From UHGV virus genome UHGV-0075595: a stretch of DNA of 35,420 nt; one strand, written 5' to 3'. Source of the DNA: a virus. Shown one piece after another: positions 50 through 35,420 of the stretch (positions are counted from its first letter, which is position 1; each line of letters begins with the position of its first letter). Below the pieces are notes generated by a model that saw nothing but the letters and a program-made list of their open reading frames with translations, made no database searches and was not told the origin of the DNA. Made by a program: the position numbers and the translations under genes.

Positions 50-547
50 TCAGTGCCACGATTTTTGCTTCTTCAGTGAATCGTATTGCTGTTCGCAGGA
101 TTCTCCTGCAATCCGATACTTTTCAGCCTCAGCTGCTGTTGCGTTGTAAACTCGGTTGCTTTCTTCAAGCATGTCGGCGAGCACACCGATGACCTTGCTG
201 GCTGGCGTGCCAGTGGGGAAAGATCCGGTATAGTGTTCGGCGAGTCGCTTGGTTTTGTCAAGCTCGGCGCGCAGGCTGTCAGCAGCGGCATTAGCATGCT
301 CAGCATCAACACGCGCCACATCGATACGGGACTGTGCTTCACGTTCAATTTGTGTTTTCTCCTGATCACGTTGTGACCTGGCCTTATCATCAGCCTGTTT
401 CTGATCTTCCTGTGCCTGCGCATACCCGGCGTCGTACTGACGACTGCCGTGTGCATTCCAGGCTACAACTCCTGATATGACCAGAACAGCAAGCATCGCC
501 ATGATAACCAACTGTTTCCAGTATGCTTTTGCGAATGCCCAGATCAT
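50..547 (-). CDS. Rz-like i-spanin (N-terminal TM anchor, charged coiled-coil periplasmic domain)
   Basis: 165 aa; N-terminal hydrophobic segment then Q/E/R/A-rich helix; start overlaps endolysin stop; last gene of lysis cassette. Confidence 0.6.
   Translation of the reverse strand: MIWAFAKAYWKQLVIMAMLAVLVISGVVAWNAHGSRQYDAGYAQAQEDQKQADDKARSQRDQEKTQIEREAQSRIDVARVDAEHANAAADSLRAELDKTKRLAEHYTGSFPTGTPASKVIGVLADMLEESNRVYNATAAEAEKYRIAGESCEQQYDSLKKQKSWH
73..321 (-). CDS. Rz1-like o-spanin lipoprotein embedded in +1 frame of Rz
   Basis: Embedded ORF with lipobox-like signal MLSMLMPLLTAC followed by Pro-rich mature region; exact start uncertain (M at 321, 306 or 297). Confidence 0.4.
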   Translation of the reverse strand: MWRVLMLSMLMPLLTACAPSLTKPSDSPNTIPDLSPLARQPARSSVCSPTCLKKATEFTTQQQLRLKSIGLQENPANSNTIH

Positions 548-1934: not shown

Positions 1935-4397
1935 TCAATTCCCTGTTAATTGCAAAACTTGCTCTTCCAGCTTTTTAACCCTGCGTCTCATCATCGCAGA
2001 TTCCAGAATCAGAGCCTCTTCATAACGGATACCGTAACATTCACCAGCCTCGACGGCTTCGCGTACCAGAACCTTTGTCTGTATAAGTGGGTAAACTCCT
2101 GCAGAATGCTCTTCTTCCGTCACATCCCTGTATTCTGCCGGGGTCTCATTCCACTTGTCATAACAGATAAATGCCAGTCGTGACACATCTATGCCTTCAT
2201 TCTGAAATACACTGATAACATGCTGCGCAACTGCACCAAAGTGCCATCTTGCTCCGTCTTTACCTTTCACTTCGATCCTGTCAAGGTACTGGTATGAAAC
2301 CCATTCCACTCTTTCCCATGCGTCCAGTATTTTCTCATCAATAACCTCTGGAGCAGTCTTGAAACGCGCATCGGACAGCACCGTAAACGCTGACTGGGTA
2401 AATCCCCCCGACCATGCACGACCAGCCAACCCAAGAGAATAAGTATTCGTTGTCGATGGTGTCATGGCTGAATCAGAAAACTGTATATATTCTGAATTTC
2501 CAGTAGATATTCGAATATTTCCATTTATTAGCGACATAGTGCCTTTAGTATTATCACTATTGAATAATTTCAATTGCGAACTTATACCGCCTCCCACAGC
2601 CAGAGATACATCGCCTTCAGCAAGCATTCTGAATTTATCTGCAGAAACAAGCGTCTGGTTAGCAAGGTTAAAATATTTAACCCACCATTCAAAACGCCCT
2701 GACATAGTCCCAACGTACTGACCAAGCGCAGGGACGTGAACAACATTGCTATTTGTAGTGCCGTCTATACTGGAAATACCAGTCACCGCTGATGCAGAAC
2801 TCAGAATATTATTTCTGTCACCCGGATGTTTAATTTCAACAAAGTTCCTGATACACCCTTCCTCGAAGGTAACCACGCCGGAAGAACTATACATGGGGAA
2901 TATTGACGCATAATTACTGCGTGCAGCATCTAAGAAACGAATGGTTGTAGATGTCTGCAGATCTCCTGATTCATTTTTCCCATCACACCCAGTCATTAGA
3001 ATATTACTGGCAATATTATTATTTCCCTGAACGGTGACTCCGTGCGCCTGCTTTGCGTCCGATTCAGAGTAATCAACCAGCACATTCGAAATCAGGTTAC
3101 CAGTCCCCTTGCCAACAACTACTGCGGCGTATTTTGGGTTGTTAGCCATTACACTGCTAATGATATTATTCGTTGGGGCAGTTTCCGTCTCAGTTCCATT
3201 GTAAACAACGTGCTGACACTCTTCACCAATAACATTGCTGACAATGTTATATTTTGCTGCTGTTTTAAGTTCCACTGCACCAAACTGAGGATAATTTCTG
3301 GCTATCACACCATCAATTAGCGTATTTTGCGATGAATCAAAAAGCACACAACCTGCTTTTTTATTATTTGCGAACCCTAAATACTCTCCTCTTATATCTC
3401 TAACAATGTAACCTGACGGAATACCATTATTCGGATAAGCGATCAAGCTAAATCCTGTTCCTCGCGTATTTGTAAATCTGATATTTTTAACCGATACATC
3501 ATGGCCACCTGAAAATGACACCTGGTGTCCCTGCACACTATCATCTGATTTATTTCCCATAATTGTTAGCGTACTAAGCATGCCACCATCGGGCATGTTA
3601 AAAACCAGATGATTACCATCTCTGTCATACTGTTTTATCGTTCCCCCACCTGTTCCGTACAAGCCACAACGTGAAAGAGAAACTAAAGATGTATTGAATA
3701 CCCCTTCCGGAACAAAAACACTGCTAAACGAATGTAATGATTTTGTAAAAGCATCCTTGTTATCATTTAAGATTCCATTTTGAGCTCCAAAATCCTTAAT
3801 GCTGACACCATCACGCATCTTATCCTGGAACGTTCTGTATACCGCTCCAGAACCATACTGAATAAACCAACCAAAACCACCAATAACTCCGGCGATTGCA
3901 GCATCGACATAATTACGCATTGAGCGATTATTTACAGCGTCCTGCTCAAGTGATGGATCGGCAAGGTTAGATATTCTGTTTTGCTTTGCATCGTAATATT
4001 TTGCAAGCAAAGATGGTTTCATCAATGCACGTCTGAACCACCCAAAACATCGCTGGATCAGCATCGTCAGGTAGTCAAATGCATCCTCATGAACTTCGGG
4101 GAAAAATTTTCCCTGATTGCGAAGATCAGTCTCCTGCACCACATCAAGCACACGCTCTATCGTGATTCGCCAGCCAGCAGCAAGCGGCGACGGAAGAACC
4201 ACTGCACCGCCACTATAAGTTCCCGCCCCTGTTACCGTATAACCAGCATCCAGCACTAGTTTTGTAACGTTACCGTTAAGGTCAGACACCTGAACAACCA
4301 GGTCGGATTTTTTGAAAATACGGAAGGTATACGGAAATGATGTCGTAACGCCGTTACCTGTGTATTCGTTGTGGTCAACTTCGGTTGAGACCGTCAT
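1935..4397 (-). CDS. Tailspike / tail fiber with N-terminal particle-binding domain, central right-handed beta-helix (depolymerase-like) and C-terminal intramolecular chaperone (peptidase S74-like) domain
   Basis: 820 aa; N-terminal YTGNGVTTSFPYTF motif; central repetitive N/G/S/V-rich beta-helix-like region; C-terminal LSDARFKTAPEV...WHFGAVAQHV...ICYDKW motif; GGAGA RBS. Confidence 0.85.
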   Translation of the reverse strand: MTVSTEVDHNEYTGNGVTTSFPYTFRIFKKSDLVVQVSDLNGNVTKLVLDAGYTVTGAGTYSGGAVVLPSPLAAGWRITIERVLDVVQETDLRNQGKFFPEVHEDAFDYLTMLIQRCFGWFRRALMKPSLLAKYYDAKQNRISNLADPSLEQDAVNNRSMRNYVDAAIAGVIGGFGWFIQYGSGAVYRTFQDKMRDGVSIKDFGAQNGILNDNKDAFTKSLHSFSSVFVPEGVFNTSLVSLSRCGLYGTGGGTIKQYDRDGNHLVFNMPDGGMLSTLTIMGNKSDDSVQGHQVSFSGGHDVSVKNIRFTNTRGTGFSLIAYPNNGIPSGYIVRDIRGEYLGFANNKKAGCVLFDSSQNTLIDGVIARNYPQFGAVELKTAAKYNIVSNVIGEECQHVVYNGTETETAPTNNIISSVMANNPKYAAVVVGKGTGNLISNVLVDYSESDAKQAHGVTVQGNNNIASNILMTGCDGKNESGDLQTSTTIRFLDAARSNYASIFPMYSSSGVVTFEEGCIRNFVEIKHPGDRNNILSSASAVTGISSIDGTTNSNVVHVPALGQYVGTMSGRFEWWVKYFNLANQTLVSADKFRMLAEGDVSLAVGGGISSQLKLFNSDNTKGTMSLINGNIRISTGNSEYIQFSDSAMTPSTTNTYSLGLAGRAWSGGFTQSAFTVLSDARFKTAPEVIDEKILDAWERVEWVSYQYLDRIEVKGKDGARWHFGAVAQHVISVFQNEGIDVSRLAFICYDKWNETPAEYRDVTEEEHSAGVYPLIQTKVLVREAVEAGECYGIRYEEALILESAMMRRRVKKLEEQVLQLTGN

Positions 4398-4501
4398 GTT
4401 AAATCTCCAGATAGTCGCAGCACCCGTTGCGCCGCATATCTGGTTATTCTATTACCCAAAAAACCATATATGGATAGAAAGACTGTGAATATGAATAGAT
4501 A

Positions 4502-4516
4502 TTACCTTTCAGGTAA
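4502..4516. promoter_or_regulatory. Operator-like palindrome TTACCTTTCAGGTAA (member of ATTACC-N5-GGTAAT family)
   Basis: Perfect inverted half-sites; identical 17-mer TATTACCTTTCAGGTAA also at 23570..23586; lies between divergent tailspike and SOS-gene starts. Confidence 0.55.
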
Positions 4517-4555: not shown

Positions 4556-4571
4556 CTGTATAAATATACAG
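4556..4571 (+). promoter_or_regulatory. LexA (SOS) box CTGTATAAATATACAG overlapping a -10-like TATAAAT
   Basis: Exact CTGT-N8-ACAG with AT-rich centre, extended TACTGTATAAATATACAGTT; 23 bp upstream of ATG at 4594. Confidence 0.6.
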
Positions 4572-4593
4572 TTATTGCATGGAGAAGATTAAG

Positions 4594-4851
4594 ATGCAGC
4601 AGTATCACTATCCACTGGAAGAGGGATTTACCGAAAGGATTCACACGCCGGGAGGCGTCAGGTCACTGGTGGAGGGATCGCACTTGATGAAATTACTCCG
4701 GGATCTCGATAAGGATGGATTTAATGTCGATGGCCCACTTGCCGAACTGACTGCACTGATTAACTACGTCACCAGCTCACAGATGTCTATGCAGGATCTG
4801 CAAACACATCTCGACTATTGTGCCGAACAATTACGAAAACAAACCAGATAA
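4594..4851 (+). CDS. Small protein (85 aa) paralogous to the C-terminal domain of the downstream AntA-domain antirepressor; putative SOS-induced immunity modulator
   Basis: GGAGAAG RBS 6 nt upstream of ATG; shares a colinear motif series with the C-terminus of ORF 5169..5825 (IH-[ST]P-[GS]GV ... LM-LL ... DG-V-G ... ELT ... [DI]LQTH--Y); LexA box in its promoter. Confidence 0.55.
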   Translation: MQQYHYPLEEGFTERIHTPGGVRSLVEGSHLMKLLRDLDKDGFNVDGPLAELTALINYVTSSQMSMQDLQTHLDYCAEQLRKQTR

Positions 4852-4854
4852 GGT

Positions 4855-4897
4855 TTGAAATTACCAAATGGAGTGCTTATATTTACCTTTGCGGTAA
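4855..4897 (+). promoter_or_regulatory. Sigma70-like promoter (TTGAAA-17-TATATT) with operator TTACCTTTGCGGTAA overlapping -10/+1
   Basis: -35 at 4855..4860, -10 at 4878..4883, palindrome 4883..4897 with extended arms ATTTACC/GGTAAAT. Confidence 0.5.
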
Positions 4898-4924
4898 ATT
4901 TACATCGCACTCCTCTTGTGCCAT

Positions 4925-5010
4925 AGTAATCGGGCACTGGCAAAATCCAGTGCCGGGATTGGTCTCCCGGATTACTAAGTGGCGCATACCACGCCAGACG
5001 TGGTTTTTTT
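4925..5010 (+). ncRNA. Candidate structured leader / small RNA upstream of the antirepressor gene (nested hairpins ending in an intrinsic terminator)
   Basis: Hairpin GCACTGG-N6-CCAGTGC (4934..4953), CCGGGA-N6-TCCCGG (4953..4970), outer pairing AGTAATCGGG/CCCGGATTACT, then terminator; track ORF here starts with TTG and has no RBS. Confidence 0.3.
4988..5010 (+). terminator. Rho-independent terminator (ACCACG-ccaga-CGTGGT followed by T7)
   Basis: 6-bp GC-rich stem, 5-nt loop, T-run; sits between promoter at 4855 and antirepressor ATG at 5169. Confidence 0.55.
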
Positions 5011-5168
5011 ATGCGTATAGCACAGTCATGCCAGAATTATGGTGGGCTGAATGGGGGTCCGAAAGGACGCCGGTACCACTTAGGCCGGTAAGACCAACTC
5101 CGTTCAGTTCACCACCATCTGATTGGTCTCAGCGGTGGTGATGTAATTCGCTAAGTGGAGACGCCATC

Positions 5169-5825
5169 ATGAACGCTCAACTCATCCCCGTATTCAACGG
5201 CACTATATCTAACGAAACAGCCCTACTTTGTAATGCCCGCGATCTGCACGCTTTTTTAGGTGTTAAAAAGGTGTTTGCAGCATGGATTACAAATCGCATA
5301 TCAGAATACGAATTCATTGAAAATCAAGACTATATTTTGCTTTCCAATTTGGGAAAGCAAACATCTGGTAGAGGCGGCCACAACCGCAAAGAGTACCACC
5401 TCACCCTTGATACAGCCAAAGAGCTGGCGATGGTCGAGCGTAACGAAAAAGGTCGCCAGGTGCGACGCTACTTCATTGAATGCGAGAAACGTTTAAGACA
5501 ACAAGAAACAAAAGTGGAGAAGGTCTTGTCAGGCTTCATGCCCGCCATTATGGAGGCGATCAAGCTGGAAGACAAAAAAGAATACAGTGCCCCACTGAAG
5601 CCCGGCTACCGCAGCCTGATTCACTCGCCGTCTGGTGTTCTCGGCCTGACGGAGAACTCACTGCTGATGAATCTGCTGAACCAGTTACAGGACGACGGGC
5701 ACGACGTATCGGGCGCGGCGGCGGAGCTGACCACCATGTTCTGCTACATCGTTGGTGTGAGCAAATGCCTGCGTGATATCCAGACGCACGCGGAGTACAT
5801 CAACGACAAGGCAGGGTTCTTCTGA
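5169..5825 (+). CDS. Antirepressor, AntA-domain N-terminus plus C-terminal domain shared with ORF 4594..4851
   Basis: 218 aa; N-terminal LIPVFNG...[10 protein letters not shown]...[22 protein letters not shown]...[33 protein letters not shown] matches AntA-type antirepressor domain as recalled; GGAG RBS. Confidence 0.65.
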
Positions 5826-5869: not shown

Positions 5870-5912
5870 TTGCAGACTGGGGGTGAATAGCGTACTATTA
5901 CCTCAAGGGTAA
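5870..5912 (+). promoter_or_regulatory. Sigma70-like promoter (TTGCAG-17-TACTAT) with operator TTACCTCAAGGGTAA overlapping -10/+1
   Basis: -35 5870..5875, -10 5893..5898, palindrome 5898..5912; same promoter-operator architecture as 4855..4897 and 29857..29899. Confidence 0.5.
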
Positions 5913-5971: not shown

Positions 5972-6604
5972 ATGAGAACAAATACAACAAGAAAAGCGAT
6001 GCCATACATTATCCCAGAAGCAGATTTCGATAGAAAACTGAACATGTCTGAGAAGAACACTAGTCACACCGAAAGCTACTTAGCGAAAGGTGTGGTTGAT
6101 TTCGTTCTTCCGGGATTCACAACACCTTATGGTTATCGCCTTGTAAAATCTTGTAATGGCGATCATTACAGAATGATTACTACCAGCGATACTCCAGAAA
6201 CGGTGTATGCGGTTAAGTTAATCTTTCGGGAAGATATCGTCGAAGCCAAAAGAACATGTACGCAGATCATGGTATGGCGTACGCCTAATGTTATTCATGA
6301 CCGTGCTGTTCATGGTTTGCCTCAGATTTTTTTTCAGTTCTTCCTAGAGCAATATGCGATCGTTGTATCTGATGAGCAACAAACAATCGATGGGAGAAGA
6401 TTCTGGGAAAGAATGATTTCTTGGGCTATAAACACCCCAGGATATAATGTATACGTTTCAGATGGCTCTGAAGAAGATAGACCTCTTAGCTTCATGACAT
6501 CATGGGATGATTTCTATAGCCAGTGGGCTGATTTCTGTTGGGGCAGTGATAAAGATGTGCATACCCACAGACTACTGGTTATAAGCAAAGATAAACTGCA
6601 TTAA
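5972..6604 (+). CDS. Hypothetical protein (210 aa), cargo gene of unknown function in the immunity-like island
   Basis: Strong GGGAGG RBS 5 nt upstream; own operator-controlled promoter and own terminator; no family recognised. Confidence 0.6.
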   Translation: MRTNTTRKAMPYIIPEADFDRKLNMSEKNTSHTESYLAKGVVDFVLPGFTTPYGYRLVKSCNGDHYRMITTSDTPETVYAVKLIFREDIVEAKRTCTQIMVWRTPNVIHDRAVHGLPQIFFQFFLEQYAIVVSDEQQTIDGRRFWERMISWAINTPGYNVYVSDGSEEDRPLSFMTSWDDFYSQWADFCWGSDKDVHTHRLLVISKDKLH

Positions 6605-23481: not shown

Positions 23482-23571
23482 ATCAATGACTCCGTACGCA
23501 ATTAAATTATTACCAATTTAACCACATATGATTTATTTATCGTAGAAGGTTGACATTTAACGCGTGAATTA

Positions 23572-23586
23572 TTACCTTTCAGGTAA
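23572..23586. promoter_or_regulatory. Operator-like palindrome TTACCTTTCAGGTAA in the late-operon / tRNA control region
   Basis: Identical to site at 4502..4516; preceded by TTGACA (23550..23555) and AATTAT; half-site TTACCAATTTAACCA at 23510..23524. Confidence 0.55.
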
Positions 23587-23908
23587 CCAAAGAGCTCATT
23601 CTGGTTACTAACCTGACTGGCTTGTCGTTAAATTAAACAGGTGGAGTGAGCTTTTATTTTGAGCAGTACGGCGTATGGCACATGCGCCGATAGCGGTCTG
23701 GATACGTTTAAGGGGCACCCTCCCTTGCTCGGGCAAACGAACCAGGTAGCCGGAATGTGCAAGTCGAGCGGTTTTATTCCGCGCACGGGGATTCACCATC
23801 CCGGCGATTCGGTGTGACGCCTCGGAAGAGACGAGGGTACAACGATGAGAGCATTTATGGAGCCGCGACAAAGTGTGGCGCCTTAACAGGCTAAGTGCTC
23901 TCAGCGTT

Positions 23909-23985
23909 GTGGCATTAGCTCAGTTGGACAGAGCAACCGCCTTCTAAGCGGTTGGTCGCAGGTTCGAATCCTGCATGCCACGCCA
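23909..23985 (+). tRNA. tRNA-Arg (anticodon UCU, reads AGA/AGG)
   Basis: Manually folded cloverleaf: acceptor GTGGCAT/ATGCCAC, D-stem GCTC/GAGC, anticodon stem ACCGC/GCGGT with loop CTTCTAA, T-arm GCAGG-TTCGAAT-CCTGC, discriminator G, encoded CCA. Confidence 0.85.
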
Positions 23986-23994
23986 GAATCACGC

Positions 23995-24474
23995 CTAAGG
24001 ACCGTGATGCCAGAAGTTCCAGGTGCTTGGCGGTGATGGTTTCCCTTGAACAGCCCATTCAAGACCATCTTTTTGACCTTGGAGATAATCAAGCGGCAAC
24101 TCTTCATGATTACTTGCAGGTTCGGCACTATGAAGCATGGCAGCGCGGCAGGCGTTCCAGCCTCTCACCTCTGCAATAGCGGCAACAGCATCAACCGCGT
24201 ACATGCTAAGAGGATTAGGCATTGGTTTTTCTTCCGGTACTACTGGCACTGGAGGGGTGGCGTAGAGTGGAACTCCTCCCCCTCCACCAGAAAATTCATT
24301 GCGAGCGTTATACTCACGACCATCTGCGTCATCACGCATCCACGCCACCGGTTCTGCTTCCAGCGATGCCAGTGCAATTTCATAAGCACGGCGCTCAATA
24401 TTGTCTCGAACGTCCAGGCTGCCTATGCGCTCTTTGATTTCTTTAATCATTTCTTTGTCGGTGAAAGTGCTCAT
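23995..24474 (-). CDS. Hypothetical early protein
   Basis: Start at ATG 24474 with perfect AAGGAG RBS 6 nt upstream (track start is upstream TTG). Confidence 0.45.
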   Translation of the reverse strand: MSTFTDKEMIKEIKERIGSLDVRDNIERRAYEIALASLEAEPVAWMRDDADGREYNARNEFSGGGGGVPLYATPPVPVVPEEKPMPNPLSMYAVDAVAAIAEVRGWNACRAAMLHSAEPASNHEELPLDYLQGQKDGLEWAVQGKPSPPSTWNFWHHGP

Positions 24475-24475
24475 A

Positions 24476-25210
24476 TCAATCTCCTTTGGTACCAATGTTT
24501 ACAGCCTGGCAAGCCTCTTTGAGCACCCAGTCAACAGCGTCTTTCCATGCTCCGGTTTCGACTGGCGGATTCTCACGCTTTACCTGTTCATAGAAGCACA
24601 CTGCTTTAACCAGTCCTTCCGGTACTACTGGTGATGGCTGTTTAGCTTCTAAATCAGCAATTCTGTCAACCACGGCATCTACGGCATCTGAAAAGCCGAA
24701 CCAGTTACTCCACTCCGGCCTATCCCCGGTTGCTGCAAAGTACATATCAGCCAAAGCAGACTCAGCATGGTCACGCTCGTTAATGAGTTGCTCTTCGCTT
24801 TTCTCCAGTTCAGCAATACGCTTACTTCCATCCGAGATAACACCTTCGTAATACTCGCGCTGCTCGTTGAGTTTTGATTTTGTCTCCTCAAGCTCAACAC
24901 GCAGTTTCCCTACCGTTAGCGCAATATCCTCGTTCTCCTGGTCACGGCGTTTGATGTATTGCTGGTTTCTTTCCCGTTCATCCAGCAGCGCCTGCACTAC
25001 TTCAGGGTTGAAAGCTGCGATATAACGAGCGTTGTTCTCTGCGTTGTTCTGTCCATCAAAGCCGGTCCATTTGATAACGTCTTCACATCGTTTATCACCA
25101 GGTGTATGCACCGCATATGTACCAGTACCAGACGAAATAAATGCGACCCATTCACCCTGTGTTGCCAGTTGCGCCGCCTCACGCAGTGCCTGATAGTCAA
25201 TCTTGTTCAT
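24476..25210 (-). CDS. Hypothetical early protein with central coiled coil (resembles lambdoid Ea22/Ead-type proteins, unverified)
   Basis: 244 aa; AGGGTG RBS; E/R/K/Q-rich helical middle region. Confidence 0.4.
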   Translation of the reverse strand: MNKIDYQALREAAQLATQGEWVAFISSGTGTYAVHTPGDKRCEDVIKWTGFDGQNNAENNARYIAAFNPEVVQALLDERERNQQYIKRRDQENEDIALTVGKLRVELEETKSKLNEQREYYEGVISDGSKRIAELEKSEEQLINERDHAESALADMYFAATGDRPEWSNWFGFSDAVDAVVDRIADLEAKQPSPVVPEGLVKAVCFYEQVKRENPPVETGAWKDAVDWVLKEACQAVNIGTKGD

Positions 25211-26369: not shown

Positions 26370-26714
26370 TCAGAACTCTTCGATGTTCCAGCCACCACCT
26401 GCTTTCTTTGGCTTAACCGTTACCCCGATGATTCGGAACGGATACTGATCTGCGGCGACTTTGGTTTTCACCCTGGCGTCGTCGGTCCAGAAACCTTTCA
26501 CTTCGTGCAGTTCCATCTCTCCGGTGGCGAGCATCACAGCGAAATCTGGCGTATAGAACGTGTTGTCAGCTAACCGCAGCTTGATACCCTCAAATCGATA
26601 CCAGACGATTTCTCCTGCACGTTTACGCATCTCAAGGTGCTGACAATACGCAGATTCTGTTTTGTTCATCTGGCCTGTTTTGAGTCGACCAAGAGCCTGT
26701 ATCTGTTTTCTCAT
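26370..26714 (-). CDS. Putative small PD-(D/E)xK nuclease (VRR-NUC-like or RusA-like)
   Basis: 114 aa; motif TPDFAV...EMELHEVKG consistent with PD...E-x-K; AGGGG RBS; operator overlaps RBS. Confidence 0.35.
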   Translation of the reverse strand: MRKQIQALGRLKTGQMNKTESAYCQHLEMRKRAGEIVWYRFEGIKLRLADNTFYTPDFAVMLATGEMELHEVKGFWTDDARVKTKVAADQYPFRIIGVTVKPKKAGGGWNIEEF

Positions 26715-26717
26715 GAT

Positions 26718-26732
26718 TTACCCCTGAGGTAA
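26718..26732. promoter_or_regulatory. Operator-like palindrome TTACCCCTGAGGTAA overlapping RBS of gene 26370..26714
   Basis: Perfect half-sites; 62 bp from site at 26780. Confidence 0.5.
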
Positions 26733-26779
26733 TTAAAAACCACATAAGACACGAAATCAATAGATTTTAGAATATTTTA

Positions 26780-26794
26780 TTACCTCATAGGTAA
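26780..26794. promoter_or_regulatory. Operator-like palindrome TTACCTCATAGGTAA downstream of P-like gene
   Basis: Perfect half-sites with ATTACC/GGTAAT extension; adjacent weak hairpin plus T7 run on minus strand. Confidence 0.5.
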
Positions 26795-28725: not shown

Positions 28726-28740
28726 TTACCTTTGAGGTAC
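28726..28740. promoter_or_regulatory. Operator-like palindrome TTACCTTTGAGGTAC (one mismatch) between Cro-like gene terminator and downstream genes
   Basis: Half-site mismatch in right arm. Confidence 0.4.
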
Positions 28741-28795: not shown

Positions 28796-29026
28796 TCATG
28801 AGTAGAAGAAGTATGCCAGTTCCGCTTTTGAGCGCAGCCATTGTCTTGTTTTACAGGCTTTAAAAAGCCCATTCATCAATACCTTACCTGGCATTTTGCG
28901 CTTACCTGTTAAGTGAGTCTGGATATAGTGACTCGTCGTTCCGGCTTCCTGTGCGAAGGCTTCACGCTCATCCGGAGTAAGTGCAAGCCAGTGCTTTTTG
29001 AAATCGAAATGTCCGTTATCGCTCAT
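28796..29026 (-). CDS. Cro-like HTH regulator
   Basis: 76 aa; helix-turn-helix-like AFAQEAGTTSHYIQTHLTGKRKMP; divergent from repressor gene across operator cluster. Confidence 0.45.
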   Translation of the reverse strand: MSDNGHFDFKKHWLALTPDEREAFAQEAGTTSHYIQTHLTGKRKMPGKVLMNGLFKACKTRQWLRSKAELAYFFYS

Positions 29027-29062
29027 AGCTATTGCCTGATATTTATTTCAGATAATAAATAT

Positions 29063-29125
29063 TCACCCATAAGGTAACAAAAATCAAGGATAGTTACCTA
29101 TGGGGTGCATTTACCTGTTGGGTAA
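29063..29125. promoter_or_regulatory. Immunity operator cluster (three sites: TCACCCATAAGGTAA 29063..29077, TTACCTATGGGGTGC 29094..29108, TTACCTGTTGGGTAA 29111..29125)
   Basis: Three related palindromes in the 154-bp gap between divergent Cro-like and repressor genes; first two are inverted near-copies of each other. Confidence 0.6.
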
Positions 29126-29180
29126 TATTGCTTTAAATTGAATCATCTACTGATTCATATATGAGGCGATTTTCCAGAAA

Positions 29181-29765
29181 ATGAAAAGTATCCAGGACGT
29201 CCGCAGGCAAAATCTCAACGACTTGATCGACCGTGAATTCAATGGTGTTCAGACGCGGATGGCAGAAAAACTTGGAACTCAGGCAAATCTGGTAAACCGC
29301 TGGGCTCTTGGCAAGAAGGTTATCGGCGACCAGGTTGCGCGAAAAATTGAAGCTGCCGCCAATAAACCCCGTAACTGGCTTGATATCGATCGCTCGCTTT
29401 CTCAGGAAGGTTTTCAGCCTGTCGGCCCAAGCGACATTGGTCAGCTGGCAGCTCACAACCTGGAACGCTGGATGAGTGAAAGCCGCGACCTTTCAACTCA
29501 GGGAAAACTTCACCGCGCATCCGGCGTCGCCCAGGTGACAATCAGTCGCCTGTTAAACAATGAGGTCAGCGTTTCCATTTCCACCCTGGAGAATGTTGCA
29601 TCCGCATTCGGGCGTCACGGATATGAACTACTGATTCACCCGCACGACCCTGCGACTATCAACTATGACCGCTCGCGCTACGCATTGTTACCCGAAACCG
29701 AGAAAGCAAAGATCGAAAGTTACATTGAATTTGTCATCAACCAGAACGAAAAAAACAAACAATAA
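29181..29765 (+). CDS. Repressor with tandem XRE-type HTH domains, no recognisable LexA-like S24 autocleavage domain
   Basis: 194 aa; two HTH-like segments (MAEKLGTQANLVNRWALGKK... and LHRASGVAQVTISRLLNNEV...); followed by strong terminator. Confidence 0.6.
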   Translation: MKSIQDVRRQNLNDLIDREFNGVQTRMAEKLGTQANLVNRWALGKKVIGDQVARKIEAAANKPRNWLDIDRSLSQEGFQPVGPSDIGQLAAHNLERWMSESRDLSTQGKLHRASGVAQVTISRLLNNEVSVSISTLENVASAFGRHGYELLIHPHDPATINYDRSRYALLPETEKAKIESYIEFVINQNEKNKQ

Positions 29766-29785: not shown

Positions 29786-29809
29786 AAGCCGCCTTCTGGC
29801 GGCTTTTTT
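29786..29809 (+). terminator. Rho-independent terminator (AAGCCGCC-ttct-GGCGGCTT followed by T-run)
   Basis: 8-bp stem directly after repressor stop. Confidence 0.7.
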
Positions 29810-29822
29810 ATTGCCTATACTA

Positions 29823-29899
29823 TTACCTAATGGGTAATTTTTTTAACTCATATCTATTGACATCAAACCAAATACGCATAATTATTACCTCAACGGTAA
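29823..29899 (+). promoter_or_regulatory. Left-operon-like promoter (TTGACA-17-AATTAT) flanked by two operators (TTACCTAATGGGTAA 29823..29837; TTACCTCAACGGTAA 29885..29899)
   Basis: -35 at 29857..29862; operators 62 bp apart centre to centre; downstream operator overlaps -10/+1. Confidence 0.55.
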
Positions 29900-30073: not shown

Positions 30074-30373
30074 ATGAACGTTAATCAGCAGAAAAATCTT
30101 CAAAAAATCATGCTGGCATTCGACAAGGACTACCGCCTGTCAGAACAGCTATATGACCGACAAGTTGAACTGATTGAGAGCATCCGACTTCATCAACTGT
30201 CCTCAACTTTCGACGTTGTAACAGGCAAAGGCGTTCGTCAGGAAGTGCTGGAGGCTGCTAAAGACAGCCCTGAGTTCGAAGAACTGATGGATGCCTACCG
30301 GCGCGAGGCAATGGCAATTATAGCGCGCTGGGATCTGGCGGATCAGCTTGATGGACAGAGGGACGCGGCATGA
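30074..30373 (+). CDS. Hypothetical early protein
   Basis: Start at ATG 30074 with GGGAGGG RBS; stop overlaps next start (ATGA). Confidence 0.45.
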   Translation: MNVNQQKNLQKIMLAFDKDYRLSEQLYDRQVELIESIRLHQLSSTFDVVTGKGVRQEVLEAAKDSPEFEELMDAYRREAMAIIARWDLADQLDGQRDAA

Positions 30374-31191
30374 AACCGGGAATTTATTTCGACATCAGCA
30401 ACGAAGACTACCACGCCGGTGACGGCGTGAGTAAGTCGCAACTGGACATGGTTGCCAAGAATCCGGCGCTTCTTAAATGGGTTCAGGCAGCACCAGAAGA
30501 CGAAGAGAAAAAGTCTGCACTGGATATGGGAACCGCATTGCACTGTCTGCTTCTGGAGCCTGGAGAATTCGACAAACGCTTCATTGTTTCACCGAAGTTC
30601 GATCGTCGGACGAAACAAGGTAAAGCTGACGAAGAAGCATTTCTTCGTGATGTAGCGGATATGGGGATTACGGTACTTGATGCCGAGCAGTGGCGGAAAC
30701 TGGAGCTGATGCGTGATAGCGCAATGGCTCACCCGGCGGCACGCTGGATGCTGGAAGCACCTGGTTACTGCGAAGCATCAATGTACTGGAACGATGAAGA
30801 GACGGGTGAGTTGTGCCGAATTCGTCCAGACAAATGGCTGAACGAGCACAACGTGATCGTCGACGTGAAAAAGGTTGCAGATATGGACCGTTTTGCACGT
30901 CACATCGAGGAATTCCGCTACCACGTGCAGGACGCAATGTACCGCGAAGGCGCAATGAGGGTTACTGGTCAGCCGCATGGTTTTTTCTTTCTTGCCGTGA
31001 GCGAAAGCATTGATTGTGGTCGGTATCCGGTACGCGTGTTCGGGCTGGATGCGCCGGATGTCGATGCCGGGCACGCTCTGTTCCGCCGGGATCTGAATAC
31101 CTATCACGAATGCCGCATCAGCGATGAATGGGGCGGCGTGGAAATTATTAAACGCCCTGAGTGGGCACGCAAACAGGATATGTACGTATGA
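30370..31191 (+). CDS. RecE-family PD-(D/E)xK exonuclease (nuclease-domain-only form)
   Basis: GIYFDISNEDYHA...LHCLLLEPGEFDKRFIVSPKFDRRTKQGKADEEAFLR resembles RecE C-terminal nuclease domain as recalled; paired with RecT. Confidence 0.65.
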   Translation: MKPGIYFDISNEDYHAGDGVSKSQLDMVAKNPALLKWVQAAPEDEEKKSALDMGTALHCLLLEPGEFDKRFIVSPKFDRRTKQGKADEEAFLRDVADMGITVLDAEQWRKLELMRDSAMAHPAARWMLEAPGYCEASMYWNDEETGELCRIRPDKWLNEHNVIVDVKKVADMDRFARHIEEFRYHVQDAMYREGAMRVTGQPHGFFFLAVSESIDCGRYPVRVFGLDAPDVDAGHALFRRDLNTYHECRISDEWGGVEIIKRPEWARKQDMYV

Positions 31192-32105
31192 GCAACGAAA
31201 TTGCAATCACCAATGATGTGTTGGCTATTCGGGGAATCGATGAAGTTACATGGAGCGCTCTGAAAAACAGTATTTACCCTGGGGCAAAAGATGAATCGGT
31301 AATGATGGCAGTCGATTACTGCCGGGCGCGTCAACTCGATCCTCTTCTTAAGCCGGTACACCTGGTACCAATGAGTGTTAAAGACTCGAAGAGTGGAAAG
31401 AATGAATGGCGCGACGTGGTCATGCCTGGCATTGGACTTTATCGCATTCAGGCCTACCGTTCCGGCGATTACGCAGGCGCTAATGAACCTGAGTTCGGTC
31501 CAGATGTAACACAAACGCTTTCAGGCGTGGAGGTTACCTTCCCTCAGTGGTGTAAGTACACCGTCAGCAAGCGAATGGCAAGCGGGGAAATCGTAGAGTT
31601 TAGCGCCAAAGAATACTGGATTGAGAACTATGCAACTGGGGGGCGTGACACATCGGCACCAAATGCCATGTGGAAAAAGCGCCCTTATGCGCAGTTGGCA
31701 AAATGCGCAGAGGCACAGGCATTACGTAAAGCATGGCCGGAGATTGGTCAACAAGCCACAGCTGAGGAAATGGAAGGTAAATATATCGACTCACCTGACA
31801 TTATTGAACGTGACGTAACTCCAAGAAGTCAGGCAAAGCACGGCACAGCATCCAGCATGAACAGTCTGATCAACGCTAAACCAGTGAAAAAGCATGATGA
31901 GCAAACGCGTAAAGCGGATAGCCGTGATCCAGAAGAAATGCTGATGGCCTTTACCAGCGCAGCGATGAATTACAGCACTGTCTCCGAACTGGATAAGGCT
32001 TACAAATACATTGCACAAAAACTTTCAGATGATGACGAACTGCTGGCAAAAGCCACCGACGTTTACAGCGTTCGTCGGGAAGAATTAAACGAAACATCTA
32101 TGTAA
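31188..32105 (+). CDS. recT: RecT single-strand annealing recombinase
   Basis: Motif MWKKRPYAQLAKCAEAQALRKAWPE characteristic of RecT; ATG overlaps upstream stop (ATGA). Confidence 0.8.
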   Translation: MSNEIAITNDVLAIRGIDEVTWSALKNSIYPGAKDESVMMAVDYCRARQLDPLLKPVHLVPMSVKDSKSGKNEWRDVVMPGIGLYRIQAYRSGDYAGANEPEFGPDVTQTLSGVEVTFPQWCKYTVSKRMASGEIVEFSAKEYWIENYATGGRDTSAPNAMWKKRPYAQLAKCAEAQALRKAWPEIGQQATAEEMEGKYIDSPDIIERDVTPRSQAKHGTASSMNSLINAKPVKKHDEQTRKADSRDPEEMLMAFTSAAMNYSTVSELDKAYKYIAQKLSDDDELLAKATDVYSVRREELNETSM

Positions 32106-34113: not shown

Positions 34114-35370
34114 TTATTTATTACTGTCTTCCATCCACTTCTCAAACTTCGACGGGGAGAACGGAATCAGATCCGTATGCTCCCCGTTAATCCAGGAATC
34201 AATCATATCGGCCCACTGCTGCAACATGTAGGCGCGCTGTCTGGCGTATTCCGCTTTGTTATATACGGCGCGCACACCTTTCTGCTCGTGTGCCAGAGCC
34301 TTTTCAATCCAGTCTGAAGGATAACCAGCCTCATGCAACAATGTACTGGCTGTACGGCGCATATCATGTACAGTAAAATCCTGAATATGCTCACCATCTT
34401 CATTTATTATTTTCACCGTTCTGTCGATCAGAGAGTTCAGCGCGGCATTAGATAATGGCTTCCGGAAATTGTAACGACCAGGAACCAGATATTCACTTCC
34501 ACCAGCGCACATCTGCAACCCAACCAATATATCCTGTGCCTGTTTAGGCAGGTAAATAACGTGCGCCCGGCTTCCCTTCATGCGGTCTGAAGGAATTGTC
34601 CATGTCCATTTTTTAAAATCTATTTCATCCCACGTTGCATTGGTGAATTCGCCTTTACGAACCATAGTGATAAGCACCAGCTTTAAAGCCATTTTCATAG
34701 TGCCCATAGCACCAATGGCATCCAGCGTGCGGAAGAACAGGCCAATTTCTTCTGGTGTCAGTGTTCGCTCTCGTGGTTTAAATATGGCGATAGACGAAGG
34801 TTTAATGTCAGCCGCAGGATTAAACAAACCATGACCACGGTCATTGGCGTGACGGTATACGCTGCTGATGATCTCCCTGGCCTGCACTGCTGTTGCCCGG
34901 CCGCCGCGTTCGACAATCCGGTCACACAAATCACGAACCATCGATGTGGTAATTTCAGTCATCATTTTGTTGCCAAGAACCGGAAGTATGTCACGGTCGA
35001 TCACCACCTGCTTCATTGCGCGGGTACTGTCAGCCAGGATGACATGTTTCATATAACTGTCGGTATGTACCGCAAACGTCTCGGCACCACGAATCTTTTT
35101 GATACCGTCACGTTTAGCCGCAGCCGGTGACTGGCCTGCTTTAAGCAGCTTCTTTGCAGCAATCAGTTCTTCTCGCGCTTCTGCCAGGCTGATACCGTCA
35201 CGCCCATACTGCCCGATTACCAGTGTTTCGCGGCGACCGTTGATACGGTAGTCATAGCGAAACGAGACCGTGCCTGACGTAAGCACAGCTACATACAGCC
35301 CGTCACGATCGGAGACCTTGTACAGTTTGTCCTGCGGCTTGAGGTTTTTTAATTTTGTATCGGTAAGCAC
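34114..35370 (-). CDS. int: Tyrosine integrase, P4-type
   Basis: 418 aa; N-terminal MLTDTKLKNLKPQDKLYKVSDRDGLYV arm-binding pattern; C-terminal catalytic-domain motifs; GTG start after in-frame stop. Confidence 0.85.
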   Translation of the reverse strand: MLTDTKLKNLKPQDKLYKVSDRDGLYVAVLTSGTVSFRYDYRINGRRETLVIGQYGRDGISLAEAREELIAAKKLLKAGQSPAAAKRDGIKKIRGAETFAVHTDSYMKHVILADSTRAMKQVVIDRDILPVLGNKMMTEITTSMVRDLCDRIVERGGRATAVQAREIISSVYRHANDRGHGLFNPAADIKPSSIAIFKPRERTLTPEEIGLFFRTLDAIGAMGTMKMALKLVLITMVRKGEFTNATWDEIDFKKWTWTIPSDRMKGSRAHVIYLPKQAQDILVGLQMCAGGSEYLVPGRYNFRKPLSNAALNSLIDRTVKIINEDGEHIQDFTVHDMRRTASTLLHEAGYPSDWIEKALAHEQKGVRAVYNKAEYARQRAYMLQQWADMIDSWINGEHTDLIPFSPSKFEKWMEDSNK

Positions 35371-35420
35371 AATTCACCCGTATAGAAACCATTTTCATGA
35401 CGGTATGAGAGTATACCTTT

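Follow-up and report, generated by a model that had tools for sequence, protein, structure and literature searches.

A probable SPC32H-type Rep/Ant immunity switch and its repeated operator in a phiV10-like prophage of Escherichia coli

Three palindromes lie between a Cro-like gene and a divergent repressor gene in the phage genome studied here. The question raised by this locus is which protein reads the palindromes, and how the repressor would be removed from them. The window, that is, the whole stretch of 35,420 nucleotides that was analysed, is, judging from its sequence, a phiV10-like/epsilon15-type (Uetakevirus) temperate podophage, a prophage of E. coli. Its DNA was found to be 98.3% identical to that of phiV10 across 2 kb, and its repressor (Rep) was 100% identical to phiV10 p40, ZX5 ORF21, and the repressors of typing phages 9 and 10. 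This type of prophage was found in 562 of 5426 complete E. coli genomes (~10%). The immunity switch is the Rep/Ant antirepression of the SPC32H type, which is real but ordinary and already known. The model as a whole, with the Rep/Ant immunity centre of a Uetakevirus phage, dyads read by Rep, and Ant under the control of LexA, is in our judgement very probably correct. The SPC32H Rep/Ant system was reportedly treated by Kim and Ryu in 2013 (J Virol 87:11775) and by Kim et al. in 2016 (PNAS 113:E2480), and its mechanism is said to have been solved at the atomic level, as PDB 5D4Z and 5D50.

Rep was found to match 5D50_A across residues 1–190 (phmmer, E=4e-42) and 5D4Z across residues 89–190 (E=4.1e-20). 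The best 12 Foldseek matches were all 5D50/5D4Z, with a TM of 0.69 on the 92–198 fragment. Sequence and fold both show Rep to be homologous to SPC32H Rep over its full length. The two HTH-type folds ascribed to the repressor in the preliminary description were both recovered. Pfam HTH_3 matched Rep in two stretches (1.2e-9), the best at residues 106–147, and weak Cro-like HTH matches were present at residues 21–61. The AlphaFold model contained a four-helix bundle at residues 4–61, a disordered stretch at 62–85, a five-helix bundle at 86–151, and a long helix at 172–193. The model and Pfam together show the three-part architecture of the SPC32H type without a peptidase, the roles of the parts being taken from PMC9986798. 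The absence of an autocleavage domain, claimed beforehand, was also borne out. Pfam gave no Peptidase_S24 match at E<=1, the S24 fold was absent among the Foldseek matches, and neither an AG nor a CG dipeptide was present in the 194 residues; Rep thus lacks the marks of the autocleavable LexA/lambda CI class. Among 86 homologue clusters, every full-length member was ~194 aa long and had no domains other than HTH; the few clusters of shorter proteins were truncated.

According to papers citing the SPC32H structure, the N-terminus is the DNA-binding domain (DBD), the middle HTH-like domain (MDD) is the dimerisation domain, and the C-terminus (CAD) is the tetramerisation and Ant-binding domain (PMC9986798). 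It is also reported that the palindromic sites are bound by a Rep tetramer, which is split by Ant (PMC9638917). Identity between the window Rep and SPC32H Rep was no more than about 42%, falling to 34% in the middle domain, and the oligomeric behaviour of the window Rep is extrapolated from its SPC32H homologue at this identity. The mean pairwise identity within the Rep family was 67% in the N-terminal domain vs. 57% in the second domain, and N36, R40, and W41 of the N-terminal domain were invariant. Conservation within the family thus peaks in the N-terminal domain, in keeping with a half-site that is invariant throughout the family. Overexpression of the identical repressor in ZX5 reduced the lysin and holin transcripts by >99.9% (PMC9782041). 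The phiV10 record on the repressor already reads "two helix-turn-helix motifs" and "putative repressor".

The three related palindromes, 17–31 bp apart and flanked by the two divergent genes, were found just as had been described, in the 154 bp that separate the Cro-like gene from rep (sites A, B, and C; Table 1). The start-to-start spacing was 31 bp between A and B and 17 bp between B and C. All three positions were kept in 7 loci while the flanking sequence diverged. Site A was kept in all relatives, with one half always imperfect. Site B is degenerate in this phage; it is nevertheless taken as real, because the sites aligned with it in SPC32H and BUCT711 are perfect. Site C, the best match of the trio, adjoins rep instead of covering the candidate rightward promoter (PR). 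A TTGnnT hexamer was present at the PR −35 position in 7/7 loci compared, whereas the promoter scan proposed TTGTTA-17-TATTAT, 7 nt further downstream; site A would overlap the core of PR under either placement. Together with the PL operators described below, a tripartite operator between divergent repressor and cro genes is present. The Cro-like protein matched PHROG 35 "transcriptional repressor" (E=5.6e-13) and was 76% identical to SPC32H_042, with an invariant HTH stretch AGTTSHYIQxHLT; its role as Cro is suggested by its position only.

The consensus scan found no rep promoter on the + strand from 29078 to 29180. The sole conserved candidate seen by eye was a −35 TTTACC (29110–29115) and a −10 TTAAAT (29133–29138), separated by a 17-nt spacer. 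No Shine-Dalgarno sequence was found in front of rep. A leaderless rep mRNA was considered for this reason and was rejected, since the ATG has no −10 at a suitable distance. An ORF antisense to rep (29133..29456, −) was dismissed as a by-product of the ORF listing, being unannotated in every relative.

Table 1. Features of the immunity region and of the operator-like sites in the window.
Feature	Position	Strand	Basis or remark
Operator, exact	4502..4516		between divergent tailspike and ant genes
LexA box, CTGTATAAATATACAG	4556..4571		exact match; directly upstream of ant
ant, small antirepressor	4594..4851	+	PDB 5D50_E, PHROG 450
Second antirepressor module	4855..5825	+	promoter, operator, isrK, C4, Bro-N::Ant gene
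Module promoter	4855–4883		TTGAAA-17-TATATT
Module operator	4883–4897
isrK-like RNA	4934–5010		Rfam, 67.7 bits vs. cut-off 50
C4 antisense RNA	5035–5119		Rfam, 61.2 bits vs. cut-off 45
Bro-N::Ant-domain gene	5169..5825	+	PHROG 377 "anti-repressor Ant"
Operator, exact	5898..5912		upstream of ORF 5972..6604 (PHROG 1349, function unknown)
Operator, exact	23572..23586		terminase-portal gap, upstream of tRNA-Arg
Operator pair	26718..26794	−	26718–26732 and 26780–26794, 62 bp apart; brackets candidate promoter
Single operator, 1 mismatch	28726..28740		just past terminator of Cro-like gene, upstream of replication genes
Cro-like gene, 76 aa	28796..29026	−	PHROG 35; first gene of rightward early operon; = PhiV10p41
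Candidate PR	29058..29087	−	−35 TTGATT (29087..29082), 18-nt spacer, −10 AATATT (29063..29058)
Operator site A, TCACCcataaGGTAA	29063..29077		1 mismatch to TTACC-N5-GGTAA; overlaps candidate PR
Operator site B, TTACCtatggGGTGC	29094..29108		2 mismatches
Operator site C, TTACCtgttgGGTAA	29111..29125		exact match; nearest to rep
rep, 194-aa predicted non-cleavable repressor	29181..29765	+	PDB homology, Pfam, AlphaFold model, Foldseek
Parts of Rep	residues ~1–62, ~62–85, ~86–152, ~160–193		N-terminal HTH, disordered linker, HTH_3-fold middle, C-terminal helix
Intrinsic terminator after rep	29786..29805	+	scan; annotated as terminator in phiV10
OL/PL operators	29823..29899	+	motif and promoter scan; 29823–29837 and 29885–29899, bracketing TTGACA (29857)-17-AATTAT (29885)
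Operator-like site upstream of int, start only	35413..35420		window end; sites of relatives

The operator motif was defined as TTACC-N5-GGTAA, a 15-bp dyad, with A-TTACC-N5-GGTAA-T as the consensus. The window contained 9 exact copies (0.037 expected), 12 copies with <=1 mismatch (0.64 expected; maximum of 3 in 300 first-order Markov simulations), and 34 copies with <=2 mismatches (9.5 expected). The regulon therefore holds at least 12 sites in the window, and the trio between the divergent genes is only a part of it. TTACC-N5-GGTAA was the top 5-N-5 palindrome in 5/5 Uetakevirus genomes, at orthologous promoters, and this was equally so for Serratia and Raoultella prophages with a Rep of no more than 54% identity. 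No other enriched repeated dyad was found in any genome compared. In 45 exact-match sites, where the arms TTACC/GGTAA are fixed by definition, the unselected flanks and spacer were also symmetric. The present analysis established the homologies as well as the sites, with their frequency above the chance level and their conservation, and the motif is putatively assigned to Rep from position, enrichment, and conservation only. In the literature searched, with the primary SPC32H and epsilon15 papers set aside, nothing usable on operator mapping in Uetakeviruses was found.

Further sites were found throughout the window. The OL pair downstream of rep was overlooked in the preliminary description. 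The spacing of this operator pair was 62 bp (63 bp in BUCT711) in five Uetakevirus genomes and the Raoultella prophage, and a comparable pair in the Serratia prophage was 75 bp apart. The pair at 26718..26794 brackets TTGATT-17-TTTAAT, which was read by eye as a candidate promoter for the DUF1064 gene (26370..26714). Orthologues of the single site past the Cro-like gene were present in phiV10, Tyrion, BUCT711, and L007, and those of the site in the terminase-portal gap in phiV10 (3252), SPC32H (3175), Tyrion (3969), and BUCT711 (34570). The GC-rich 320 nt upstream of tRNA-Arg gave no match to an Rfam family. The operator at 4502..4516 was kept in 5/5 Uetakevirus genomes, exact in 4 and with one mismatch (GGTGA) in phiV10. 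At the position upstream of int, complete sites with 1 mismatch were present in phiV10, SPC32H, Tyrion, and BUCT711.

The sites could also be read mainly by the Cro-like protein or another phage regulator, with Rep acting elsewhere. In favour of this, the Cro-like protein is the better conserved of the two (76% vs. 42% for Rep, window vs. SPC32H), its invariant HTH fits an invariant site, and sites are also present ahead of late, lysis, and integrase genes, where a lambda-type repressor would not usually act. This reading would, however, leave Rep without operators, as the genomes hold no other enriched dyad. Moreover, PL, PR, and the ant promoters, the very points at which an immunity repressor has to act, are bracketed or overlapped by these sites, and the N-terminal reading helix of Rep has family-invariant residues. 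Lambdoid Cro and repressor share operators, so that shared use is likelier than use by Cro only. We therefore regard an exclusive Cro-like reader as improbable; the Cro-like protein, with its very conserved HTH, could equally read these sites.

A different arrangement on the DNA was suggested beforehand, in which the two tandem HTH domains of a single Rep monomer could contact both half-sites of one palindrome. Two HTH-type folds are truly present in one Rep chain, and the disordered linker of ~24 residues would let them sit side by side. Two different helices (QANLVNRW and VAQVTISR) are expected to give an asymmetric site, whereas the half-sites are identical inverted copies, TTACC/GGTAA, with symmetric flanks and spacer; exact inverted repeats of one half-site require the same reading head twice and not a pair of unlike heads. 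The helix region of the second domain, which includes its putative reading helix, was 26% identical between window and SPC32H vs. 52% for that of the first domain, while the half-site is invariant. The asymmetric site and the constraint on both helices that mark a single-chain tandem-HTH reader were thus not seen. The papers cited above place DNA binding at the N-terminus alone and dimerisation in the middle, with a tetramer on the DNA. The single-monomer claim was accordingly not supported, and such a reader is in our view highly improbable. The possibility that the trio is a chance group of AT-rich near-palindromes without a regulatory role, to which the two mismatches of site B and the ~9.5 such matches expected in the window might lend some colour, is already refuted by the number of exact copies and by the conservation of the three positions in seven loci with diverged surroundings. 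Reading of the dyads by Rep is thus the interpretation followed below.

The small antirepressor matched PDB 5D50_E "Anti-repressor protein" (E=1.7e-47, about 89% identity). The ant ORF opens at 4579; the ATG at 4594 is preceded by GGAG and agrees with the SPC32H start. The CTGT/ACAG arms of the LexA box were kept in 4/5 related phages, BUCT711 having ATGT. A cognate small Ant behind a LexA box is thus present in the same phage, and the antirepressor-dependent switch proposed beforehand was upheld by this orthologue together with the SPC32H homology of Rep. The second antirepressor module resembled P1 immI: a C4-family RNA followed a promoter with a repressor operator and preceded an antirepressor gene. 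The C-terminal 83 aa of the Bro-N::Ant protein were 42% identical to Ant (E=4e-17), and this domain was 73.6% identical to ZX5 ORF4. The Bro-N "anti-repressor" of ZX5 cut lysogeny about 1000-fold (PMC9782041).

The mechanism that we propose carries over tetrameric DNA binding, non-cleavage, and Ant action from the SPC32H work, and we infer the promoter governed by each site. The 15-bp dyads would be read by pairs of Rep N-terminal HTH domains; the middle HTH-fold domain would dimerise Rep and the C-terminal domain would build tetramers. One tetramer would then carry two DNA-reading pairs and could therefore grip two operators simultaneously. In the lysogen, Rep would sit on site A, within the core of the rightward promoter that serves the Cro-like gene and the replication genes, on sites B and C adjoining its own gene, on the OL pair bracketing the leftward promoter, and on at least 7 further promoter-associated sites around the genome. 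With so many promoter-associated sites occupied, nearly every lytic transcription unit would be shut directly. Rep, having no S24 protease, would stay uncut after DNA damage. RecA-stimulated cleavage of LexA would free the LexA box before ant, and the Ant produced would bind the Rep C-terminal domains, split the tetramer into dimers, and take Rep off the DNA. The promoter at 4855, being under Rep control in this phage, should likewise become active once Rep is lost, leading to the Bro-N-fused Ant-domain protein gated by isrK/C4. This second antirepressor would have a feed-forward role and reinforce the switch.

Three further readings, taken jointly, are offered tentatively and are, on balance, somewhat doubtful: Rep as a global gatekeeper, immunity specificity at the Rep-Ant interface, and the Bro-N::Ant protein as a latch. 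They are undescribed in the literature searched, the primary SPC32H and epsilon15 papers set aside. If the first is true, Rep directly closes almost every phage transcription unit via one invariant dyad, i.e., the early left and right units, replication, the nin-like region, terminase/late, lysis, int, and both antirepressors. The fixed 62-bp pairs (six helical turns) at PL and the DUF1064 promoter would let one tetramer clamp a promoter. As for specificity, the half-site is unchanged while Rep drifted to 42% identity; if so, specificity would lie at the Rep-Ant interface instead of the operator. The Rep-repressed Bro-N::Ant fusion, if it acts as a latch, would give positive feedback and make induction irreversible.

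As a discovery, the locus carries small weight, since the repressor was already annotated and experimentally handled as phiV10 p40/ZX5 ORF21. The value lies in annotation: the "hypothetical protein" PhiV10p24 is now tied to Ant, and an operator consensus is defined, with about 12–16 sites per genome of this prophage type. The model predicts SOS induction via LexA and Ant, not via cleavage of the repressor. Modest leads for cross-immunity and for commitment of the switch are offered by the operator, which does not vary between hosts, and by the second antirepressor with its RNA gating.

The closest known system is SPC32H, which shares the three-part Rep without S24, an Ant about 89% identical with a LexA box upstream, the gene order (cro-like < OR > rep, terminator, OL/PL), the half-site, and the 62-bp operator pairs. 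Its OR sites at 34390, 34407, and 34437 mirror 29111, 29094, and 29063 of the window. The two differ in the sequence of Rep, with only about 42% identity, in the degenerate site B of the window, in the number of OL sites (two in the window vs. three in SPC32H), and in the Bro-N::Ant-domain gene with isrK/C4 RNAs, which is lacking in SPC32H. The repressor protein of phiV10 (p40) and ZX5 (ORF21) is identical to the window Rep, and ZX5 ORF4 has an Ant-like C-terminal domain in common with the window Bro-N protein; the ZX5 paper (PMC9782041), however, maps no operators and contains neither a small LexA-controlled Ant nor a connection with SPC32H Rep/Ant.

Antirepressors controlled by LexA were reported in Gifsy-1/Gifsy-3 and phage 186 (Tum) (Lemire et al., 2011, PMC3121763). 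These switches share the logic of the present one: LexA represses the gene of a small protein, which in turn inactivates a repressor that cannot be cleaved. The proteins appear unrelated in sequence to the window Rep and Ant, judged by their absence among the PDB and PHROG matches. The immI of P1/P7 (C1-controlled c4-icd-ant) and isrK-anrP of Gifsy-1 resemble the second module in the presence of an operator, C4, and isrK before an antirepressor. The window antirepressor differs in being a Bro-N fusion with an SPC32H-type Ant domain, and the module carries a Rep-type operator instead of a C1-type one.

The window resembles the lambda CI/LexA-type switch in that the repressor and cro genes diverge from an OR of three sites, that PL, downstream of the repressor gene, has operators of its own, and that the repressor is predicted to oligomerise beyond the dimer and could thus bridge separate operators. 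The window Rep, however, has no S24 autoprotease or Ala-Gly site, so that induction would go through the antirepressor; its tetramer would be built from other domains, and its putative operators are also found at the late, lysis, ant, and int promoters.

Three dyads (sites A, B and C, together OR) were found in the divergent gap between the Cro-like gene and rep, which encodes the 194-aa repressor Rep. The preliminary description had placed three palindromes here, and their coordinates can be read directly in the sequence, the starts being 31 bp (A to B, three helical turns) and 17 bp (B to C) apart. When all 5-N-5 palindromes were counted de novo, TTACC-N5-GGTAA was the clear top scorer, and its abundance is far beyond chance. 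The window contained 9 exact copies (0.037 expected), 12 copies with up to one mismatch (0.64 expected; maximum 3 among 300 first-order Markov simulations) and 34 with up to two mismatches (9.5 expected). Sites A, B and C were all kept in the OR alignment of 5/5 genomes (window, phiV10, SPC32H, Tyrion and BUCT711), site B being weak in the window phage and a perfect match in both SPC32H and BUCT711. Three OR sites also occurred at matching positions in the Serratia and Raoultella prophages.

Judged from the exact or one-mismatch copies within the window, the three OR sites are part of a wider regulon (Table). Dyads were found at equivalent places in phiV10, SPC32H, Tyrion and BUCT711, where they were also present before the terminase and lysis genes. 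The two bracketing pairs were separated by 62 bp centre to centre (six helical turns) in every genome, with 63 bp once. The 210-aa ORF behind the exact operator at 5898 belongs to PHROG 1349, a family of unknown function, and is a putative accessory gene under Rep control, next to the antirepressor module. The operator at 23572 lies beside TTGACA and is followed by ~320 nt of GC-rich, ORF-free DNA and then tRNA-Arg(tct); this unit (23550-23985) and the late genes are on opposite strands. The GC-rich leader gave no match to Rfam families. SPC32H showed the same layout, with the operator at 3175 and tRNA-Arg at 2788-2861.

Table. Operators and neighbouring features of the window (mismatches are to TTACC-N5-GGTAA)
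Feature	Position	Mismatches	Context
Gap, 154 bp, 76-aa ORF to 194-aa ORF	28796..29026 (-) / 29181..29765 (+)		three 15-bp dyads inside
Site A, TCACCcataaGGTAA	29063-29077	1	OR
Site B, TTACCtatggGGTGC	29094-29108	2	OR
Site C, TTACCtgttgGGTAA	29111-29125	0	OR
Dyad	4270		inside tailspike gene, possibly chance
Dyad	4502-4516	0	ant/tailspike divergent region, upstream of LexA box
LexA box, CTGTATAAATATACAG	4556-4571		exact CTGT-N8-ACAG, 23 bases upstream of ATG 4594
Dyad	4883		over -10/+1 of TTGAAA-17-TATATT
isrK	4934-5010		Rfam, 67.7 bits
C4 antisense RNA	5035-5119		Rfam, 61.2 bits
Bro-N protein, 218 aa	5169..5825
Dyad	5898	0	upstream of ORF 5972..6604
Dyad	23572	0	terminase-portal gap
tRNA-Arg(tct)	23909-23985
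Dyad pair	26718 and 26780		bracket candidate promoter of DUF1064 gene
Dyad	28726		just past terminator of Cro-like gene
rep terminator	29786-29805		downstream of rep
Dyad pair	29823 and 29885		bracket TTGACA-17-AATTAT, leftward early promoter
Dyad			upstream of int, cut off by window end

The arrangement of promoters and operators was also examined. A TTGnnT hexamer on the minus strand (29087..29082) was kept in 7/7 loci, and we infer that it forms the rightward promoter with an 18-nt spacer, filled by site A, and AATATT (29063..29058). The alternative of the promoter scan, TTGTTA-17-TATTAT, is also covered by site A. In the leftward, 4855 and DUF1064 candidate promoters, the downstream operator starts at the last -10 bases. 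The rep promoter can be assigned only loosely; the sole conserved candidate is TTTACC (29110-29115, the left arm of site C)-17-TTAAAT (29133-29138), and if it is used, site C would be autoregulatory and site B would lie near -44. No Shine-Dalgarno sequence was recognisable before rep (ccagaaaATG, 29165-29183), nor in SPC32H and BUCT711. A leaderless rep mRNA was rejected, as there was no promoter at a suitable position. rep has its own terminator.

Rep was 100% identical to phiV10 p40, ZX5 ORF21 and the proteins of phiv142-3 and O157 typing phages 9 and 10, and 78% identical to that of Enterobacter phage Tyrion; identity was 45% with the Klebsiella phage proteins and 42% with the epsilon15, SPN1S and SPC32H proteins. 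The phiV10 record describes p40 as having "two helix-turn-helix motifs" and as "similar to putative repressor epsilon15p38". Pfam found HTH_3 in two stretches (E=1.2e-9, best at residues 106-147) and weak Cro-type HTH matches at residues 21-61, and no Peptidase_S24 match even at E<=1; the 194 residues contained no Ala-Gly or Cys-Gly dipeptide. In a search of solved structures, residues 1-190 aligned with 5D50 chain A ("Repressor", E=4e-42) and residues 89-190 with 5D4Z; both entries are from Salmonella phage SPC32H, 5D50 being its Rep-Ant complex and 5D4Z a tetramer of Rep(92-198). The AlphaFold model (mean pLDDT 74.8) predicts a four-helix HTH bundle (4-61), a disordered linker (62-85), a five-helix HTH_3-type bundle (86-151) and a long terminal helix (172-193). 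Its best Foldseek matches were exclusively 5D50/5D4Z chains; small XRE/SinR-type HTH proteins came next, and no S24 fold was among the matches. The earlier account of a tandem-HTH repressor without an autocleavage domain is therefore borne out. Among 86 homologue clusters of a large protein database, from prophages of Escherichia, Citrobacter, Lelliottia, Serratia, Raoultella and related genera, the full-length members were all ~194 aa with HTH domains only, and the few shorter clusters were truncated.

The same account proposed that one monomer could read both half-sites. The 45 exact-match sites of the five phages were symmetric beyond the defining arms, with A before, T after and A or T as the central base in 98%, and such exact dyads would not be selected by a chain that reads with two unlike helices. 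Mean pairwise identity in the Rep family was 67%, 57%, 51% and 21% in the N-terminal, middle and C-terminal domains and the linker, respectively. N36, R40 and W41 of the presumed N-terminal reading helix were invariant, and the equivalent helix region of the second domain was 26% identical between the window and SPC32H proteins. This second helix varies despite a half-site unchanged across all relatives examined, including the Serratia and Raoultella prophages with a 54%-identical Rep. Published work assigns DNA binding to the N-terminus only, dimerisation to the middle domain (MDD), and tetramerisation and Ant binding to the C-terminus (PMC9986798); the form of SPC32H Rep that binds palindromic sites is a tetramer, with paired DNA-binding domains from different dimers (PMC9638917). 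In contrast to lambdoid immunity groups, this family shows no apparent diversification of operator specificity. The TTACC half-site was constant in phages of Escherichia, Salmonella, Enterobacter, Klebsiella, Serratia and Raoultella, with Rep identity down to 42%.

The 2 kb around OR and rep were 98.3% identical to Escherichia phage phiV10, of the genus Uetakevirus (epsilon15-like podophages), and related sequence was found in 562/5426 complete E. coli genomes. Compared with phiV10 and TL-2011b, the window was without both terminase genes, the p55-type late 'transcriptional regulator' and neighbouring genes. Within region 23500-24480, similarity to TL-2011b ends at 24050 and that to nin-region genes of EC.W1-9 begins at 24051, a junction absent from all complete E. 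coli genomes searched. The prophage is probably defective with an intact immunity region. The exonuclease (30370..31191) and RecT (31161..32105) are separate overlapping ORFs here and a single fused RecE-RecT in the phiV10 record.

SPC32H Rep is reportedly left uncleaved in the SOS response and inactivated by the small antirepressor Ant, whose gene is said to be repressed by LexA. ORF 4579..4851 of the window matched 5D50 chain E ("Anti-repressor protein") with E=1.7e-47 and 74/83 aligned residues identical; ATG 4594, preceded by GGAG, is the likely start. The LexA box and the 4502 dyad were kept in phiV10, SPC32H, Tyrion and BUCT711 despite diverged flanks. Ant acts as a tetramer that binds two dimers of Rep and splits the Rep tetramer (PMC9638917). 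Upstream of the tailspike gene, ATTCTATTACCCAAAAAACCATATATG (4446-4474) includes a single Rep half-site and may belong to the promoter of that gene; ATTCTATTACC and ATATG were invariant in the five phages.

The system is the already described Rep/Ant of SPC32H, and the identical protein has already been handled in ZX5, where its overexpression eliminated free phage and reduced endolysin and holin transcripts by >99.9% (PMC9782041). Of the earlier interpretation, antirepressor dependence is upheld by an Ant homologue behind an exact LexA box in the same window, and the monomer spanning the dyad is not retained. Novelty, if any, would be confined to the consensus of the operators, the map of sites across the genome with its fixed 62-bp pairs, and half-site invariance across Rep variants. 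Downstream of the 4883 operator, isrK, an Hfq-binding RNA, is followed by C4 antisense RNA and a Bro-N protein, whose last 83 residues were 42% identical to Ant (E=4e-17). ZX5 ORF4, an "anti-repressor" whose overexpression lowered lysogeny ~1000-fold (PMC9782041), was 73.6% identical to it in the C-terminal domain, with a different N-terminus. With a Rep operator at its promoter, this module would open only after Rep is removed by LexA-controlled Ant; the 4855 promoter would then drive the Bro-N::Ant module as a feed-forward step. The isrK/C4/Bro-N layout is similar to P1 immI, and the module is like the isrK module of Gifsy-1 and lies inside a podophage.
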